IMG/VR virus record: IMGVR_UViG_3300013713_000001
Span: 128,001-192,000 of that record
DNA length: 64,000 nucleotides
Source of the DNA: a virus
Lineage: Duplodnaviria > Caudoviricetes
Direction: 5' to 3' (one strand)
A program made the translations under genes and the position numbers. Numbering within the stretch: the first letter of the stretch is position 1; every line of letters begins with the position of its first letter. Under the pieces are notes generated by a model. It was not told the DNA's origin, ran no database searches, and saw only the letters and a program-made list of their open reading frames with translations. Below are positions 1,058 to 35,381 of this stretch, in pieces.

Positions 1058-2587
1058 ATGAACGATTTGCTGGTGTTGGTCAAAATACTGACCTCGGTGT
1101 ATCAGGCAAAAAAGCTTAAAGACAAAAACCTGACCACCGAACTAACTGAAATTCTGGAAGAACTGCCGGCACCTCCTCCCGACATTTTGACGCAAGACAA
1201 GGCGCTTCGGGAAGGGATTCGAGCCGCAATCTTCTGGACCCTCGAACAGGAGGATGGAGATCCGCTTATAAAATCTCTGTTGCAACAGCGTATCGCCGTA
1301 TTTAGCAAAGGCGATGACACAATCAAGAAGGTTGTGGCTGATGGCATGGAAGACTTTGAATCGGAAGAAATGGTTCGTCGGTTGATCTTTAGACAGATCA
1401 AGGACATTCGTAAGAACGCTCAGGAAGAAGCCTTCCAGAAGAAGTTCCGTCAAAAGATCCGTGACTTTGCGTACAAAGATCTCCACGAGATGAAACGTGA
1501 AGACTGGGGTGCTTTGCTGGACCTTATCCAAGAAAGGGTTAACGACTCGTTTAACGAACGTCAATCCGAAGTAGTGGTGTCGGTCAACACCAATGACCCA
1601 GCGAGCATGTTGGCGGTCATCGAATTGGCCAAGCGGGAGAAGAGTCCCGAAGGTATCTTGATCAGTCCGCTCCAAGGTCTGAACATTGCAATGTACCCTG
1701 ACGGTGGGTTTAACCGTAACAAGACGTACATGATCGAAGCCCTGACCAACCGGGGTAAGTCATTGACCATGGGTCATCTCCTGTGGGGTATTGCGAAGTA
1801 CAACAAGCCGTTCCTTCGTGACCCTTCGAAGATCCCTACTATCTGCTTCGACTCATCGGAAGACACGATGGGCTTGGTACTCGAGCGGATGTACAAGCTG
1901 AGCTGTGCAGCGTCGTTGGACATGGACGCTAACTTCTTGAGCGATGATTCGATCTCTATTGCTGATGAGATCGCCAAGTCGTTTAAAGAGAACGGTTGGT
2001 TCCTCGTCATCAACCAGATCGAATCGAACAAAGAGGACATGAACCGCTTGATGGATCGTGTTCGTACCTTGGAGCTCAAAGGTCACGAGATTATCCTCTA
2101 CGGTTACGACTACCTGGCCTTGATGAACTACGACAAGATCCCAGGCGACAGCAAGTCTGACAAACTGCAGTTGTTGTACCGTCGTGTTCGTTCGTTCATG
2201 ATCAACCGCGGTATCTGCTTCATCACTCCTCACCAGCTTAACCCGGATGCTAAGCGTTCGTTGAAAGAGATGGATGACGAGAGTGAGGTGTACTTCATTC
2301 GTGAGACCGCTGGACAGTCGATGACTGAAACGTCGACAAAGATCACTAACGAAGTGGATTGTGTATTGGGGATTCACGTAGCTCGCGGTCAGCAAGCCAG
2401 CTACTGGTGCTGCATGCTTGGGAAGATGCGGGGTGAAGGTGCCCCTCCACCTGATCGGTTCTTCTTCTACAAGCTTGATCCGAAGTTTGGGTTACTCCAT
2501 GACATTATGGGCAAACCCATGTTCCGACGCAGCCTGCAACAACGCATTACCGAACGTGGCTTAGAGAACGACTCCGACATGATGTAA
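1058..2587 (+). CDS. DnaB-like replicative helicase
   Basis: Walker A ALTNRGKS, conserved Glu (SSED), Walker B-like YDYL, HQLN motif, K-x-R finger (GKMRG). Confidence 0.88.
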   Translation: MNDLLVLVKILTSVYQAKKLKDKNLTTELTEILEELPAPPPDILTQDKALREGIRAAIFWTLEQEDGDPLIKSLLQQRIAVFSKGDDTIKKVVADGMEDFESEEMVRRLIFRQIKDIRKNAQEEAFQKKFRQKIRDFAYKDLHEMKREDWGALLDLIQERVNDSFNERQSEVVVSVNTNDPASMLAVIELAKREKSPEGILISPLQGLNIAMYPDGGFNRNKTYMIEALTNRGKSLTMGHLLWGIAKYNKPFLRDPSKIPTICFDSSEDTMGLVLERMYKLSCAASLDMDANFLSDDSISIADEIAKSFKENGWFLVINQIESNKEDMNRLMDRVRTLELKGHEIILYGYDYLALMNYDKIPGDSKSDKLQLLYRRVRSFMINRGICFITPHQLNPDAKRSLKEMDDESEVYFIRETAGQSMTETSTKITNEVDCVLGIHVARGQQASYWCCMLGKMRGEGAPPPDRFFFYKLDPKFGLLHDIMGKPMFRRSLQQRITERGLENDSDMM

Positions 2588-2613
2588 TCGAAGAAAAAAG
2601 AAACATAGTTTAG

Positions 2614-2644
2614 TACCCTACCAGCCCTGAGGGCTGGTAGGGTA
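2614..2644. terminator. Bidirectional terminator hairpin
   Basis: TACCCTACCAGCCC-TGA-GGGCTGGTAGGGTA between convergent genes. Confidence 0.8.
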
Positions 2645-2656
2645 ACTATGTCTGCT

Positions 2657-3205
2657 TTAGAGCTTTATCCCGTAGGACTCACGGACCATTGCGTCATAGG
2701 TGGCCATCGCCAGAGCTACATCGCCTTTAGTGATCCACTGGAGCTGAGCCATACAAGCTTCTTTCTCCCACGGTTGAGTCAGGTAGCCCTGTATCTCGAT
2801 CTTGTGGTATTCACCTTCCCAACGCATCTCCATGAATGCGATCGATTCCATACGACCGTCCCATACCTGCTTAACGTGCGTCATCTCGTGAATCAGCGTG
2901 CCGATGTTCATGAACTCTTCACAGATTCCTTCATGGTCCTTGTATTGACCTTTCATGTTCTCCGGGTAGATTACCACGGACAGCGGGTCCTCTTTGTTGT
3001 AGCTGACCTTCAGGGTCTCCAAGTCCAGGTGAGAAACAAACGCTTGAACCGGCGCATTGTCAATCTCAGGGAAGTCCCCTTTCTTGGCAAAGACGATATG
3101 CAAGGTTTTCCCCGGGTAACGTCTTTCAACATTGAAGACGTATTGCAGGCCATGATTACCAAACACGTTGCAGAAAGTTTCAACAGTGCCATTAATGAAT
3201 TGCAT
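2657..3205 (-). CDS. Putative zincin metallopeptidase
   Basis: HEMTHVKQ (HExxH) plus downstream PWEKEA; early-promoter motifs upstream. Confidence 0.65.
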   Translation of the reverse strand: MQFINGTVETFCNVFGNHGLQYVFNVERRYPGKTLHIVFAKKGDFPEIDNAPVQAFVSHLDLETLKVSYNKEDPLSVVIYPENMKGQYKDHEGICEEFMNIGTLIHEMTHVKQVWDGRMESIAFMEMRWEGEYHKIEIQGYLTQPWEKEACMAQLQWITKGDVALAMATYDAMVRESYGIKL

Positions 3206-29523: not shown

Positions 29524-30561
29524 TTAGTAGCCAAAGGCTTTGTTACCAGCTTTCAACAGCGATTTGCACGCAGCGATCAGTTCTTTGCTGACCCGGGCCA
29601 GGGCGCCGATGCAGGTAAGGCCGTGTTTCAATGGCGGGATACCTTTCTTGGCTTCCGCATCGTCACCGGACTCGATCTGCTTCAGTGCTTTATCCAGATG
29701 CCCTTTGAGCGCTACGAGGTCCTTGTAGCTGTCCTCGGTCATGTCGAGGTTCTGGTTGACCAAGGTGTAGCAGTCCTTCATGTCGGCTACCGAGCCGCTG
29801 TCTTTCGCGTTACGGAACCGAGAAGCCAACGTATCGACTTCAGCACGGAAACGCTTGGCGTCCGAGGCCAGAGCTTGGTGGAGCTCGTCACCTGGATGAC
29901 TCTGCGAAGCTTCCAGAATGGTGCCGTAGGCGCGCGACATCAGTTCCAGGTGCTTGGTAACGTCACCGAGCTTCTTCTTGAAGGTGTTTTGCGAACGCTT
30001 GTTCAGCTTGGGCAGTTCGCGCCCGATCATCAGAACGGCTTTCTTCTTCTCGGGCTGGCTGGCCTTCATGGCTTCGTCAGCTTCTTTCAGGATCTGATCG
30101 AGAGCGGACTTGTTCACGTCGGGTTCATGGGTCAGCGCCAGGGCCACTTTGCGCAGGTTCGTCAGCGCTTTAGTGGTTTCCTGTTCGGTGCTACCACCGG
30201 TTTCGATGACCTTCAGAACTTCAGCAGCTTCTTTCACTTCTTCCTTCGCTTCGGTGAGCAGCTTGGGCGCGTCACGCTTGAGGAAGAAGTCCCAGATCGA
30301 GGTGAACATCTTCTTGATGTAGGCAATGGCGGCCTTGAAACCATCACCGACCTTACCCATGAAGCCTTCCTGACCGACTTGGTTACGACGAACGTAACCG
30401 TTGGCAACCAGCACCGAGCCGAGGTACACCTGGGCAGAGGTCAGGCTTTCGGTCCCCGCAACCTGGTTCAGGGAATCGCTCATCCCGTCCAGGATTTCAC
30501 TGACGTGCTCCGGCTCAGGAATCCCCGTGTCCAGATCGTCTTCGAACATTTCTTCATTCAT
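29524..30561 (-). CDS. Inner-head protein (paralog family)
   Basis: Acidic leader, AGTESLTSAQVYL, VGQE then GFMGKVGDGFKAAIAYIKKMFTSIWDFF. Confidence 0.7.
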   Translation of the reverse strand: MNEEMFEDDLDTGIPEPEHVSEILDGMSDSLNQVAGTESLTSAQVYLGSVLVANGYVRRNQVGQEGFMGKVGDGFKAAIAYIKKMFTSIWDFFLKRDAPKLLTEAKEEVKEAAEVLKVIETGGSTEQETTKALTNLRKVALALTHEPDVNKSALDQILKEADEAMKASQPEKKKAVLMIGRELPKLNKRSQNTFKKKLGDVTKHLELMSRAYGTILEASQSHPGDELHQALASDAKRFRAEVDTLASRFRNAKDSGSVADMKDCYTLVNQNLDMTEDSYKDLVALKGHLDKALKQIESGDDAEAKKGIPPLKHGLTCIGALARVSKELIAACKSLLKAGNKAFGY

Positions 30562-30573
30562 CGCGAGGGTTCC

Positions 30574-31581
30574 TTAGATACCGTAGACTTTGCCGACAGA
30601 CGTGCTGACCGACTTCATGTGGGTGAGGGTGCGCTTCAGGAGGCCCGAATAACGCGCGGCGGATTTCACGAACAGCTGGAGGGCCTTGAGGTTTTCCTCG
30701 CCGGCTTTCTTCTGCTCGTCGCTGGCCGAACCGTTGCCGTCGAGCTTCGACAGGTTGTCGATCATACCCTGGACGCGGGATTCGGTGGCGCCGGAGGCTT
30801 CGAGTGCACGGTCGATGATCTTCACGTGGTCTTTCAGCGAACCGAGGGTCGCTTCAGCCGCCTTGATGTCAGCCAGTTCGCGAATGCCTTTCAGGGTGTT
30901 GATGAGGGACTGGGTGCCCGACACGCCACCTTTGACACCGGAGGCCCAGGCCACGTAGGTGCTGTCGCCGCTTTTCTTGGCTTCGGTTTCGACCTCAGCA
31001 GCGAGCTTCACTTCGCCTTCCAGCGACTCGACGAGTTGAGCGATCTTCACGACCATCGCCTTTTGAGCTTTGTCGTTCGACTTACCCACTTCTTTCGAGA
31101 GGGTGGTCAGTTCTGCCAGGCTGGTGGCATCGCTGATCTTCTGGACGAGTTCTTTCGACTCGCTGGCCGCGCGCTTCAGACCTGCCTTGACCTTTTCAGG
31201 TTCCTGCAGTTCTTTCACGGTTTCGGTGATGCTGGCAGCGACCGCCTTGCTTTCTTCAGGACCCTGCTTCTTGAAGAAGAAGCCCCAGATGCTCTTGAAC
31301 ATCTTCTTGATGTACTCGATCGCCTTGCTGGCGCCGGCCTTGACGTTGCTGAAGAAGCTCTCAGCACCGGAAACCGATTCAGCGTAGCTCAGGCCACCCG
31401 AAGCGCTCAGCACGCCGTGCAGGTAGATCTGGGCGGTGGTGAGGCTTTCGGTACCGGCGATGGCGTTGACAGTGTCGCTCAGGGCAGTGAAGACCAGGCC
31501 AACGTGACCGGTTTCGGGTGCCACGAACTCTTCGTTGTCGTCGAGGATGATGTCGTCTTGCATTGCGTTTTCCTGACTCAT
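30574..31581 (-). CDS. Inner-head protein (paralog of 29524-30561)
   Basis: AGTESLTTAQIYL, SGAE then SFFSNVKAGASKAIEYIKKMFKSIWGFF. Confidence 0.7.
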   Translation of the reverse strand: MSQENAMQDDIILDDNEEFVAPETGHVGLVFTALSDTVNAIAGTESLTTAQIYLHGVLSASGGLSYAESVSGAESFFSNVKAGASKAIEYIKKMFKSIWGFFFKKQGPEESKAVAASITETVKELQEPEKVKAGLKRAASESKELVQKISDATSLAELTTLSKEVGKSNDKAQKAMVVKIAQLVESLEGEVKLAAEVETEAKKSGDSTYVAWASGVKGGVSGTQSLINTLKGIRELADIKAAEATLGSLKDHVKIIDRALEASGATESRVQGMIDNLSKLDGNGSASDEQKKAGEENLKALQLFVKSAARYSGLLKRTLTHMKSVSTSVGKVYGI

Positions 31582-32270: not shown

Positions 32271-32307
32271 ATACCTAGACCCCTCCCTTTCGGAAGAGGT
32301 CTAGTAT
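32271..32307 (-). terminator. Terminator hairpin
   Basis: CTAGACC...GGTCTAG imperfect stem followed on the minus strand by GTATTTTATG. Confidence 0.6.
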
Positions 32308-32317
32308 ATTTGTTACA

Positions 32318-32887
32318 TCAAAGTGCCTTACCCGCCAGTTCAGCGCTTGCTGCTCGGAGGACTTCCGTGAGATGGGGATCCTCAGGGGGCATATTTGGAT
32401 TAGAGGTGTCTTTCAACCGATTGGACTTTAGCCGTTCAGCTTCTTTACGTTTCTCTTCATCCCACTTAGCACGATCGGCTTTACCTTTCGCACTTCCCTT
32501 AAGGATTTTCTTTACTAGGAACATGGGTGTGTTCAAGTATTCCGTCAACGTCATGAACTCATGGAGACGATGGAAATGGAATTCCTCCATAATCACCTCC
32601 ATGGCCCAGGGATGACGAAACTCGTTTTCACCCTCGTAGTAGAGTGCACCTTGGCCAGGCCTCAAGCGCTTGACGTCGATGTACCCCATCTTCAGGTCGT
32701 AGAGCAGGTCTCTGTTAAAGGCAAGCTGTTCTTCCGTGAACAGGCTTTCGTCGATCTTTCCTACGTTTGCAAATGCTTGCCGATACTGATCGTTGGGAAA
32801 AACCGGACCACCGATTACGAGCGGGCTTCGAGCTCGACCCGCTGCTTGGTTTCCGCCATCCGAACCAACATGAACTGGGTATGGGTA
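32318..32887 (-). CDS. Probable -1 frameshift extension of the 571-aa protein (ORF track calls only 32318-32689)
   Basis: Frame is stop-free for 66 codons upstream of ATG 32689, back to the T7 run at 32887-32893; that ATG has no obvious RBS. Confidence 0.6.
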   Translation of the reverse strand, partial: YPYPVHVGSDGGNQAAGRARSPLVIGGPVFPNDQYRQAFANVGKIDESLFTEEQLAFNRDLLYDLKMGYIDVKRLRPGQGALYYEGENEFRHPWAMEVIMEEFHFHRLHEFMTLTEYLNTPMFLVKKILKGSAKGKADRAKWDEEKRKEAERLKSNRLKDTSNPNMPPEDPHLTEVLRAASAELAGKAL

Positions 32888-34530
32888 AAAAAAGTCATGA
32901 ACATGTCGATCGGGGTGTACCCCAGGTTGCGAGCATGGCCATTGACCTCATCCGCGCCCTTCTTGCATTTCGGGCAAGGGGTATTGCGCAGACCGATGAA
33001 GGTACGCGTCATGTACGGTCCAGCGGTGTACACGAAGCGGGTCAGCTGGTTGTCCAGGTAGCTGTCCTTCAGCGCGCCGCGCAGGCCCTTGTTGAACTCG
33101 AGCTGGTCTGATTCACGGCGCTTGATCACAACCGGCGGTTCATCGCTCCCTGGCTGCGGCATCAGCGAGTACTCGGTGACCCAGTGCAGGAATTCGCAAC
33201 CACCGACACCCTTGAGAATCACAGCGATCTGGGCCTCGAGGGCTTCCTGGTCGGTGATGTTGTTTCGGGCGTTGGCGATCTGAGGATCCACCTGGGTGAC
33301 CATGTAGTCCAGCGCAGCAAACGCTTCCGCCAACGAGGTGTTGCCAACGGTCAGACGGACCGACTGGTTGGCATTGTAGATGTAGTTCTCTTCCACCCCG
33401 TACTTGGACTTCTCGATGAACTCGAGTACCTGCGCCATGCTGTAGCGTGCAGTACCGTTAAAGATGTTGCCAAGGATGGCCATCTCTTCATCGGTGTGGG
33501 CACTTGGGCGATGGCGGACGAGCAGCGCCGGGTTGATCTTCTCGTAGGAGCTCCAGTCACAGGACGGCGAGAAGCAACGCAGGTCCATGTTGGCTTCGTC
33601 GTCTTCGAACGAGGCCAGCAGTGCAGCCAGGATAACTTCCATGTCCCGGAAGCGGATAACCTGAGCCAGGTCGCGGAAGTCCGCGATGCCATCGATGCTG
33701 CAGTTGGTGATGTACGGAACCATCCAGTTCCACACCGCGCGGTAACCTGCAATCGTGGACAGGACCAGCGAGTTGCCACCGACGGTACGAACGTAACCAC
33801 GAATGGTCGCGTTGATCTCGTTGATGAGCATTGCAGCGTCAGTCTTGTGACCCCGGGCCAGCTGGAACTTGCAGAAGCTGTTGCGCAGGTTGATCGCGTA
33901 CAGGTACGGACTGGAGTTACCCCGCGAAGCAGCGCGTTCCATTTGCTCCGATAGGCTGTTCGGGCGAGCGGTGGCGCTCGGGATGAGTCCGGTGATGTCA
34001 GGCATGACAATAGAGTCAGAGGCCTTGTACACGTTACGGGCTTCTTCCCGCATCATCCTTGTCTTAACCATGATGGGGTCAGACGTGTTCTGGAGGAAGC
34101 GGTACATGTCCGCGGCTTTGATCTCCATGTCGTCGTACGAGACACCAGGGAACTTCTGGTCGCAGTACTGGTGCCATTCGGCCAGGGTCGCATTGACCAT
34201 GCTCTTGTGGATCTGACCTTTACGGGCGACTTCACGGATGCTGCTGAGCGACACCCAGATCGACACCAGCTCCTGGACTGCATCGTAGTCCGCTTTGCTG
34301 TTCCCGAGGTAGATCGGGGTAAACCCTTGACGCCGGCTCTCGTCGGTGTCTTCTGCCTGGCCTTTCGATTCAGGCAGGGAATCTACCTGTTTCTTCAACG
34401 GTGTGTTTTCTGGTGTGTGGGTGTCGGTGTACCCGAACGGCTTTGGTGGCTGTGGAATCGCCTCGCTCACCGCGTTGGCCAGAGGAGAATGTTCTGCTGG
34501 ATTGTTTACGGTTGGATCATCAGACATCAT
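32815..34530 (-). CDS. Conserved CxxC protein, candidate tail / baseplate assembly chaperone (phiKZ gp77-like)
   Basis: 571 aa with CFSPSC and CPKC knuckles; FF codons near the C-terminus sit on a slippery T7 run. Confidence 0.55.
   Translation of the reverse strand: MMSDDPTVNNPAEHSPLANAVSEAIPQPPKPFGYTDTHTPENTPLKKQVDSLPESKGQAEDTDESRRQGFTPIYLGNSKADYDAVQELVSIWVSLSSIREVARKGQIHKSMVNATLAEWHQYCDQKFPGVSYDDMEIKAADMYRFLQNTSDPIMVKTRMMREEARNVYKASDSIVMPDITGLIPSATARPNSLSEQMERAASRGNSSPYLYAINLRNSFCKFQLARGHKTDAAMLINEINATIRGYVRTVGGNSLVLSTIAGYRAVWNWMVPYITNCSIDGIADFRDLAQVIRFRDMEVILAALLASFEDDEANMDLRCFSPSCDWSSYEKINPALLVRHRPSAHTDEEMAILGNIFNGTARYSMAQVLEFIEKSKYGVEENYIYNANQSVRLTVGNTSLAEAFAALDYMVTQVDPQIANARNNITDQEALEAQIAVILKGVGGCEFLHWVTEYSLMPQPGSDEPPVVIKRRESDQLEFNKGLRGALKDSYLDNQLTRFVYTAGPYMTRTFIGLRNTPCPKCKKGADEVNGHARNLGYTPIDMFMTFFTHTQFMLVRMAETKQRVELEARS
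32887..32893 (-). promoter_or_regulatory. Candidate programmed -1 ribosomal frameshift site (T TTT TTT)
   Basis: X XXY YYZ heptamer in the correct phase (ACT TTT TTT ACC); downstream stem-loops at 32846-32868 and 32820-32843. Confidence 0.65.
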
Positions 34531-35381
34531 TGCGCGTCCTTGTTACGTTCTTCGGTAATAGGGTCTTGCGGAATGTCCTTTACCGGTTCCACCTCAGGGA
34601 AGTCATCCGGTACCAGGTTTTCGGTGTCCGCTGGGGGAACCACTTCACCCGCTTCGTTCTCGTCGAGCAGGGTCTGGGTCATCAGGACCATCTCAGCGAT
34701 CTCTTTTGCCGAGACGCCTTCGGTGGTGACGTACAGAGGACCAACCTTCTTGATCCGTTCCTCGTGCAGCTGACGGCTGTACTCGAGTACTGGCATGCCC
34801 GACGGGAGGTGCTCGGTAACGTAGCGGTTGATCTCGTGCTCTTTCTTCTTGAGCATTTCGTAGGTGGGCATGTGGTAGATGATCATCAGATCACGCATGA
34901 CGTCGACCATGTCCATGACGAGCTCGACGTAGTCTTCCGGCAGCTTTTGCGCCTGGTCGAGCATGATGATGGCGTCGACGTTTTCCACGAAGCGCACGAT
35001 GGAACGCTCGTAGACCTCGATCGTCATCGCATTTTCAGGGGTGATCTGGAAGCGACCTTCGTCTTCGGCGAGGATGGTGTAGATCGCGATGCCGCCATGG
35101 AGCTTGATGACCTGCTCCATGGTTTCCTGGATACCGCGGAGGAAGTCGACACGGTTGATACCGATTTCCGGAACTTCGCCCTTGGCCAGCTTCGATTTGA
35201 TCTTCGTGGCACCTGACTTCACATCGTTGATGAGGTCATAGACGCTGGCGTTCTTGTCGTAGAAGCCACGGCTGGCACCTTGACTCGAGGTCGACTGGTT
35301 GGCAGCCTTTACACGGGCCTTGGCCTTGCTCTTGGAACGGGCGATCTTTTTGGCTTTCATGGTTTGTTGTTTGGTGGCCAT
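34527..35381 (-). CDS. Hypothetical protein with basic N-terminus and acidic C-terminus
   Basis: 284 aa, high codon bias. Confidence 0.7.
   Translation of the reverse strand: MATKQQTMKAKKIARSKSKAKARVKAANQSTSSQGASRGFYDKNASVYDLINDVKSGATKIKSKLAKGEVPEIGINRVDFLRGIQETMEQVIKLHGGIAIYTILAEDEGRFQITPENAMTIEVYERSIVRFVENVDAIIMLDQAQKLPEDYVELVMDMVDVMRDLMIIYHMPTYEMLKKKEHEINRYVTEHLPSGMPVLEYSRQLHEERIKKVGPLYVTTEGVSAKEIAEMVLMTQTLLDENEAGEVVPPADTENLVPDDFPEVEPVKDIPQDPITEERNKDAQ

Follow-up and report, generated by a model that had tools for sequence, protein, structure and literature searches.

A conserved slippery heptamer points to programmed -1 frameshifting in a core gene of nucleus-forming jumbo phages

Introduction

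Are a 571-amino-acid gene and the 123-amino-acid open reading frame (ORF) that follows it in a giant phage two genes, or a single gene read in two frames? The question is raised by a stretch of 64,000 nucleotides (hereafter the window), positions 128,001 to 192,000 of the IMG/VR virus record IMGVR_UViG_3300013713_000001, a 229-kb record of an uncultured EL-like, nucleus-forming giant phage. An original prediction, made from the letters of the window, proposed that the larger gene ends in a programmed -1 frameshift producing a short and a long protein, in the manner of tail-assembly chaperones (TACs). We compared the locus with its orthologs, and the comparison makes it very likely that a conserved recoding event fuses both ORFs. 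Read from these sequences, the 571-aa gene and the 123-aa ORF would be one recoded gene, with programmed -1 ribosomal frameshifting as the probable mechanism. The original prediction took the event to be undescribed for this group, and our literature searches are consistent with this: no paper linking frameshifting with phiKZ-like phages or the Chimalliviridae was found, and the recoding review PMC5009743 does not mention phiKZ, jumbo phages, or the baseplate.

Results

A frame without start codons connects the two ORFs

The 3' end of the 571-aa gene reads ATG ACT TTT TTT ACC, in which the run of seven T's occupies positions 32893-32887 of the minus strand. From 32887, the -1 frame stays open for 189 codons and ends at the TGA at 32320-32318. 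ATG, GTG, and TTG are absent from this frame for 66 codons, the first being the ATG at 32689 with which the 123-aa ORF starts, and a search for a Shine-Dalgarno (SD)-like core within 18 nt of this ATG found none. The predicted products have 571 aa (about 64 kDa) and 548 + 189 = 737 aa (about 82 kDa); the predicted junction is ...MTFF/YPYPVHVG..., and the junction peptide of the long form would be ...MTFFYPYPVHVGSDGGNQAAGR. In phiKZ, the junction would come after ...STFF. The original prediction had described the canonical phase of the T7 run, the TGA upstream, the 66 start-less codons, the ATG lacking a ribosome-binding site, and the sizes of both products, and all of these sequence statements are correct. 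The features of the locus are compiled in Table 1.

In the proposed mechanism, most ribosomes would read the 0 frame through ACU UUU UUU and stop 23 codons further on, which would give the 571-aa protein. A minority would move back one base with two Phe-tRNAs on U_UUU_UUU and continue with UAC CCA UAC CCA..., whereby the terminal helix would be replaced by a Pro-rich linker (YPYP...RSPL) and a mostly helical domain of about 160 residues. The resulting long form of 737 aa would have its first 548 residues in common with the short form. It is the ribosomal nature of the shift, the minority status of the long form, and the roles of both forms that we infer here.

Table 1. Positions in the window of the features at the frameshift locus.
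Feature	Positions	Strand	Remarks
0-frame gene, 571 aa (P0001)	32815..34530	-	Ortholog of phiKZ gp77 / EL gp47; Chimalliviridae core gene cg18; PHROG 4585
Slippery heptamer T_TTT_TTT	32887..32893	-	X_XXY_YYZ phase (ACT TTT TTT), at the invariant Phe547-Phe548
TGA closing the -1 frame	32948..32950	-	20 codons 5' of the shift site; upstream limit for the shift
Putative dual-coding overlap	32815..32886	-	0 frame: last 23 residues of the short form and TAA; -1 frame: YPYPV...RSPL (start of the extension)
"Intergenic" bridge	32690..32814	-	-1 frame open, without start codon; coding-type substitution periodicity
123-aa ORF (PHROG 19747)	32318..32689	-	C-terminal part of the predicted 189-residue -1 frame extension
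Intrinsic-terminator-like hairpin, strong	32275..32304	-	13-bp stem, then T-rich tail; directly 3' of the extension stop
Upstream gene, 284 aa (PHROG 28183)	34527..35381	-	Same operon; positional counterpart of EL gp46 and phiKZ gp78

The slippery site is conserved in all orthologs examined

We read 46 orthologous loci, spanning 18-76% identity, from phages whose hosts span Pseudomonas, Erwinia, Vibrio, Aeromonas, Klebsiella, Shewanella, Serratia, Xanthomonas, Burkholderia, and Salmonella. The cultured phages are EL, RisingSun, FishSpeaker, Aphrodite1, PDCC-1, Miami, N1M2, PS2, phiKZ, phiEaH2, PCH45, pPa_SNUABM_DT01, LucasX, RAY, FLC8, Asesino, and Salmonella phage 1252, and to them come 27 IMG/VR contigs and the window. 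Part of the IMG/VR loci (L018-L040) were retrieved by a peptide pattern containing FF, which biases them for the dipeptide and leaves codon choice, the preceding base, and the -1 ORF free of bias; the loci found by tblastn or with the PHROG profile are free of this retrieval bias altogether. The EL-like Pseudomonas phage vB_PQ1 (L014) was left out of all counts. Its ortholog and the neighboring genes are split into many short ORFs (12 coding sequences in 4.5 kb), and the record looks like an error-rich assembly.

All 46 loci have NNT TTT TTT or NNT TTT TTC at the invariant Phe-Phe (columns F547/F548 of alignment A1). The 0-frame stop lies 11-45 codons 3' of the site in every one of them, and 21-27 codons in most; the exceptions are phiKZ (11), pPa_SNUABM_DT01 (16), LucasX and RAY (17), and PCH45 (45). 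The -1 frame is likewise open in 46/46, for 154-190 codons, and closes with the stop codon of the small gene as annotated, PHIKZ076.4 in the case of phiKZ. Six T's make up the run in the Vibrio, Aeromonas, and N1M2 lineages (T6, T_TTT_TTC), seven in most (T7), and eight in RAY, FLC8, and LucasX (T8), and the X_XXY_YYZ phase is unchanged in all loci despite this variation.

The codons used at the site are not those that these genes favor. In the window gene, TTT serves for 3 of the 19 other Phe codons and 15% of codons end in T; across the genes examined, Phe is elsewhere written mostly as TTC (with TTT at 0-10 of 17-26 positions, and at 0-2 of 21-26 in several relatives), and the NNT share of codons is 15-46%. 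When the frequencies of each gene's own codons are multiplied, the joint probability of the site is about 10^-10.4 over ten unbiased lineages, that is, those found by tblastn or PHROG profile, and about 10^-27 over 21 lineages that are less than 60% identical in the extension; the lineages entering these products are not fully independent, and their synonymous sites are saturated at 18-45% protein identity. Judged from the aligned genes, the conservation of the slippery site exceeds what protein sequence and codon usage explain.

The same comparison bears on the proposal that the arrangement is an artefact or a sign of decay, in which an uninterrupted gene of 737 codons would have been miscalled at its T7 homopolymer, or the locus would be a recently broken pseudogene. 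Homopolymers are error-prone, the window derives from a metagenome assembly, and a sequencing error of this kind had been named in the original prediction as something that would undo it. Yet every relative has the same frame arrangement, including the finished isolate genomes of EL, phiKZ, RisingSun, and PCH45, and independent assemblies with 69-78% identity carry an identical T7 and a 570-571-aa product. The 0-frame stop is itself conserved, and an in-frame fused form was found neither among 15 close homologs nor among the best 150 of the 952 family representatives (E <= 1e-3). Artefact and decay are in this way effectively refuted. A 686-aa protein of phiEaH2 had been considered as an in-frame fusion and was rejected, as its additional residues are at the N terminus and its locus has the frameshift layout of the others.

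The bridge evolves as coding sequence in the -1 frame

A tblastn search with the 189-aa -1 product gives alignments that begin at query residue 1, within the 3' end of the big gene, and run unbroken through the gap and over the small gene. Such continuous alignments were obtained with EL, RisingSun, Miami, FishSpeaker, and Vibrio phages, at 26-35% identity. The motifs of the extension are conserved from its first residue, with Y-P-x-P and R-S-P-L followed by D-x-N-M-G-Y and E-N-x-F-x-H-P-W-S.

Substitution rates were then taken by position 1/2/3 of the -1 frame codons in six groups of closer relatives. The bridge has rates of 0.37/0.25/0.56 and the annotated small ORF 0.30/0.24/0.56, both dominated by the wobble position, and the overlap has 0.30/0.21/0.21, as expected if both frames are constrained. 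By this measure of its substitutions, the bridge evolves as coding sequence in the -1 frame. The short form appears to be real as well: besides this dual-frame constraint in the overlap, its 0-frame tail has a conserved length, ends in the motif E-A-L-S, and is modeled as a confident helix.

Start codons are scarce in most relatives too. No ATG, GTG, or TTG occurs in the -1 frame from the upstream stop, 6-24 codons before the site, to at least 27 codons past it in any of the 20 lineages surveyed. The first start codon of this frame stands at codons 64-85 in the window, its 75% relatives, L019, and phiKZ (66 in the window, 85 in phiKZ), and no SD was found before it in either the window or phiKZ. 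The Met with which the 123-aa ORF is annotated to start is an internal residue of the D-x-N-M-G-Y motif and is replaced by Phe, Tyr, or Arg in several lineages. The check suggested with the original prediction, that the slippery heptamer and -1 frame coding upstream of the annotated ATG be sought across orthologs, found both conserved, and the comparative evidence from the 46 loci strongly supports a programmed -1 frameshift with a short/long pair of products.

Two stretches of primary sequence are conserved downstream of the site, TTTTTTTAYCCNNNNCCAGYT and GAAGCCCTCTC, the latter around the 0-frame stop, and this conservation can be explained by dual coding. The nucleotides of the GAAGCCCTCTC block (window 32815-32830) hardly change among 18 relatives (alignment A6) from lineages with 30-45% protein identity, and the dual coding of E-A-L-S and R-S-P-L may account for this near-invariance.

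Evidence against frameshifting, and the rival explanations

Several observations count against programmed ribosomal frameshifting at this locus. The first concerns stimulators. The original prediction had drawn two stem-loops 3' of the site; both hairpins, TTGGTT/AACCAA (32868-32846) and AGCGGG/CCCGCT (32843-32820), can indeed be drawn in the window, but the 100 nt 3' of the site fold no better than shuffled sequences (z = -0.12 in the window, with z-scores of the minimum free energy mostly not significant across lineages), and RNAalifold found 0 conserved pairs in 19 orthologs. An upstream SD-like core that could act as a stimulator was also looked for and not found. Besides, U_UUU_UUU on its own is reported to shift only modestly in E. 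coli, far less readily than A_AAA_AAG (PMC5009743), and for this reason the efficiency may be low and the long form would be expected to be a minor product. The FF dipeptide is itself invariant, so that the conservation of the T run is partly a protein constraint. RAY and FLC8 differ in that their -1 frame extends open 48-65 codons upstream of the site and contains a TTG or GTG there. The Erwinia phage RAY (L051) also has gp266 (2517-3065) annotated as starting at an upstream TTG inside gp267 (1033-2652), with a 136-nt overlap; this annotation is an implicit recognition that the -1 frame codes well before the usual "start".

The last of these observations comes from published phiKZ data. In the RNA-seq table of Gerovac et al. 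2025, gp78, gp77, and gp76.4 have values of 1402, 1289, and 7995 (first-sample values, units not established), and all three rise and fall together from sample to sample. The RNA of PHIKZ076.4 is at about five times that of PHIKZ077; its 3' RNA could be a distinct or a longer-lived one, and the small ORF may to some extent be expressed by itself. Its excess (NC_004629, PHIKZ076.4 at 71442-71684, PHIKZ077 at 71903-73504) suggests as candidate sources a stable terminator-proximal 3' fragment or an extra promoter, and the convergent gene PHIKZ076.3 has an RNA value that is higher still. Nevertheless, the excess can't account for the conserved start-less bridge. A published phiKZ mass spectrometry table lists gp77 with counts of 0-2 only, and the antisense knock-downs of PHIKZ077 carry the score "tox" and give no information here (Gerovac et al. 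2025).

The main rival explanation is transcriptional slippage, in which the phage or host RNA polymerase would add one U at the T run, with the same long protein and the recoding placed in the RNA. The site is a homopolymer, with seven T's in the window and eight in RAY, FLC8, and LucasX; in E. coli genes, there are fewer homopolymeric U7 runs than expected whichever of the three frames is considered, a deficit that the authors tie partly to transcriptional slippage (PMC4066793). The RNA stimulator that ribosomal shifting might use was not found by single-sequence folds or RNAalifold, which also suits this explanation. Several lineages, however, have only six T's (AAT/AGT/GGT TTT TTC), short for productive slippage, and what is invariant is the codon phase X_XXY_YYZ and not the run length. 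Since the run varies from 6 to 8 while the phase remains constant, we favor a ribosomal shift and regard slippage as unlikely.

It may also be asked whether the small ORF is simply translated alone, from its own start or by termination-reinitiation, the T run being no more than conserved Phe-Phe codons. Two separate genes, both "hypothetical", are annotated in 23/23 GenBank records whose annotation was read, PHIKZ076.4 was annotated from RNA-seq with an RNA value above that of gp77, an in-frame TTG or GTG lies upstream in RAY and FLC8, and the gaps between the annotated genes of PCH45 and LucasX are only about 20 nt. Two separate genes would nonetheless leave unexplained the coding signature of the bridge and the continuous homology from the slip site, the absence of start codons over 27-85 codons in most lineages, where neither the position of a start nor an SD is conserved, and the codon-choice bias of the site. 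This arrangement is therefore very improbable, and frameshifting within one gene is the reading that we retain.

The probably recoded gene belongs to a conserved family of jumbo phages

The closest cultured relative of the 571-aa protein is gp47 of Pseudomonas phage EL, with 42.6% identity, and more distant protein matches come from jumbo phages of Erwinia, Shewanella, Vibrio, Klebsiella, and Aeromonas. A megablast of the locus against the phage collection returned zero matches (the phage has about 43% protein identity to EL). The protein matches PHROG 4585 with E 1.3e-97, and neither this PHROG nor PHROG 19747 has an assigned function. When the phiKZ genome was searched with the PHROG 4585 profile, gp77 was found with E 1e-197, and phiKZ gp077 is the Chimalliviridae core gene cg18, a "hypothetical protein" in the supplement of Prichard et al. 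2023. The order of upstream gene, big gene, and small gene is conserved with the phiKZ gp77 locus and other relatives. By profile match and conserved synteny, then, the 571-aa gene is core gene cg18. Relatives of the big protein were found in 270 phage records, and the 25 listed are all large-genome phages of 212-310 kb. SPN3US gp238 had been taken for an ortholog, wrongly, as it is a tail protein adjoining the tape measure gp239.

In the window, the stop of the 284-aa upstream gene overlaps the start of the 571-aa gene, and the only terminator-like site between the 571-aa gene and the 123-aa ORF is a weak one of 5 bp (32824-32808). The neighboring genes encode a virion RNA polymerase (RNAP) beta subunit and PHROGs without an assigned function, a context that is the same in EL, RisingSun, phiKZ, and phiEaH2. 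Downstream of the locus, also on the minus strand, lie adjacent genes of 345 aa and 335 aa (29524-30561 and 30574-31581), whose N-terminal halves both match PHROG 21850; the two are tandem paralogs.

Residues D296, C319, C324, C519, and C522 are invariant across the family, and the arrangement CxxxxC ... CPxC suggests a four-Cys metal site, probably for zinc. The Burkholderia phage FLC8 (L052, locus 913-2439) keeps a T8 run and a 170-codon -1 ORF, and its C-terminal region (...TSVNEYEDTLSGDKW...) is without Cys, so that the otherwise invariant CPxC 5' of the shift site seems to be missing.

Predicted structures and a tentative link to T4 baseplate assembly factors

The AlphaFold2 model of the short form, built on a 27-sequence alignment, has a mean predicted local distance difference test (pLDDT) of 85.7 and a predicted template modeling score (pTM) of 0.85. 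In this model, residues 543-570 form one C-terminal helix that includes the FF and the entire 0-frame tail (pLDDT 84-92). The extension modeled alone has a pLDDT of 62, with its first 26 residues disordered and a confident helical region at 96-155. According to these models, the shift would swap the terminal helix for a Pro-rich linker and an extra helical domain. For the extension alone, Foldseek against BFVD returns orthologs only, ESM Atlas gives no usable match, and hhalign against gp51 yields noise.

A solved relative of the protein was sought by Foldseek against the PDB, by VIA-align, and by a hidden Markov model search of PDB sequences with the family profile, and nothing informative was found. 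The gp51 profile likewise found nothing among PDB sequences, and there is no solved gp26 or gp51 structure for comparison. A Pfam scan of the protein, 27 orthologs, and 10 distant family members gave no family. PF12322 (T4_baseplate), which covers T4 gp26 and gp51 and has invariant CPxC and CC motifs, had no HMMER match in the protein, the 27 orthologs, the genome of this phage, or phiKZ, while T4 gp26 and gp51 themselves score 178-216 bits.

Other comparisons point toward the T4 proteins. Beyond orthologs, Foldseek against BFVD finds at least 12 models named baseplate hub subunit, hub assembly protein, or chaperone, with E from 3e-3 to 0.3 and a target-normalised TM-score of 0.42-0.58; ESM Atlas gives a cluster in which 22% of the members have PF12322 (score 0.89), and one GenBank record names the ortholog after GP26_BPT4. 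In default hhalign runs against the gp26/gp51 family, only the CPxC motif is aligned, with probabilities of 26% and 3.6%, which are not significant. With relaxed settings (-mact 0.05), residues ~462-556 align with gp51 14-116 over 84 columns (probability 78%, score 38.5), and residues 209-387 with gp51 102-245 (probability 7%, score 25); decoys with reversed templates score 11-15. The matching segments are in swapped order, which would imply a circular permutation if the homology is real.

The original prediction spoke of an assembly chaperone and proposed a comparison with T4 gp26/gp51. The Foldseek matches in BFVD, the partial profile-profile match, and the shared CPxC speak for the comparison, and no test was significant for membership. 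In the phiKZ record, gp77 is without the "structural" note that its neighbors gp79-81 carry, and the paper on the structure of the Goslar virion makes no mention of gp81, its counterpart there; both appear to fit a non-virion factor. We regard a role as a morphogenetic assembly factor distantly related to the baseplate hub factors T4 gp26/gp51 as a tentative lead, and not as a membership in their family. In such a role, the long form would bring an additional binding domain.

Discussion

The proposed event can be set beside several known systems. In T7 gene 10A/10B, which encodes the major capsid protein, a long gene is shifted by -1 close to its 3' end, and the extension has about 50 residues. 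Both loci would shift on a U-rich heptamer lying a few codons short of the 0-frame stop, with a predominant short form and a rarer form prolonged at the C terminus that have nearly the entire protein in common; the difference is that here a non-virion core protein would be concerned, with a 189-residue extension that is annotated as a separate gene.

TACs are proteins of about 100-150 aa encoded between the tail tube and tape measure genes. With lambda G/GT and P2 E/E+E', the locus would have in common a conserved -1 frameshift and a short/long pair with a common N-terminal part and an extra domain in the long form (reviewed in PMC5009743), and P2 also uses a T-rich run. In contrast to these, the protein has 571 aa and its gene lies beside the virion RNAP and PHROGs of unassigned function. 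No Pfam TAC family was found at E <= 10 in any of the 27 members. The part of the original prediction that saw a tail-assembly chaperone of the lambda G/G-T or P2 E/E' kind was abandoned on these grounds: the size is wrong, the gene is not between tail tube and tape measure, and there is no TAC family match.

In E. coli dnaX (tau/gamma), the shift leads to early termination, so that the shifted product is the shorter one, and the site A_AAA_AAG is accompanied by an upstream SD and a downstream hairpin. Common to dnaX and the present locus would be a conserved bacterial-type -1 frameshift at a homopolymeric heptamer, with two forms in a set ratio (PMC5009743). Neither the upstream SD nor the downstream hairpin stimulator of dnaX was found here.

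As for T4 gp26 and gp51, both families have a CPxC(G/K)K motif and a second Cys pair, and this protein appears to be non-virion, as gp51 is. The protein studied here is more than twice as long, its matching segments are permuted, and it has no HMMER match to PF12322. T4 gene 26 (L044, locus 1303-1929 and 1303-1590) is annotated with two products, 26 and the C-terminal 26'; its second product arises by internal initiation and not by frameshift. A fuller scheme, which we consider rather doubtful, would make the protein a circularly permuted and enlarged relative of gp26/gp51, with an abundant short form and a rare long form whose 189-residue extension would tether the factor to a structural partner, on the pattern of lambda G/GT.

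The nucleus-forming jumbo phages (Chimalliviridae) have about 68 core genes, and this gene is among them. Recognizing the frameshift corrects the annotation of the locus and removes a phantom small gene that lacks a start of its own. The predicted 737-aa protein (about 687 aa in phiKZ, where the short form has 533 aa) would be missed by proteomics searches against current databases. It is host ribosomes, outside the phage nucleus, that translate the mRNAs of these phages, which would thus depend on recoding by the host ribosome for a core function. If the link to gp26/gp51 is true, it would give a core gene of unassigned role its first functional clue, baseplate-hub assembly, and the principle of the frameshifted assembly factor would extend beyond tape-measure chaperones. 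If the permuted relationship is also true, a second, independent stoichiometry set by frameshifting would exist in tail morphogenesis, and it would be universal in nucleus-forming jumbo phages.

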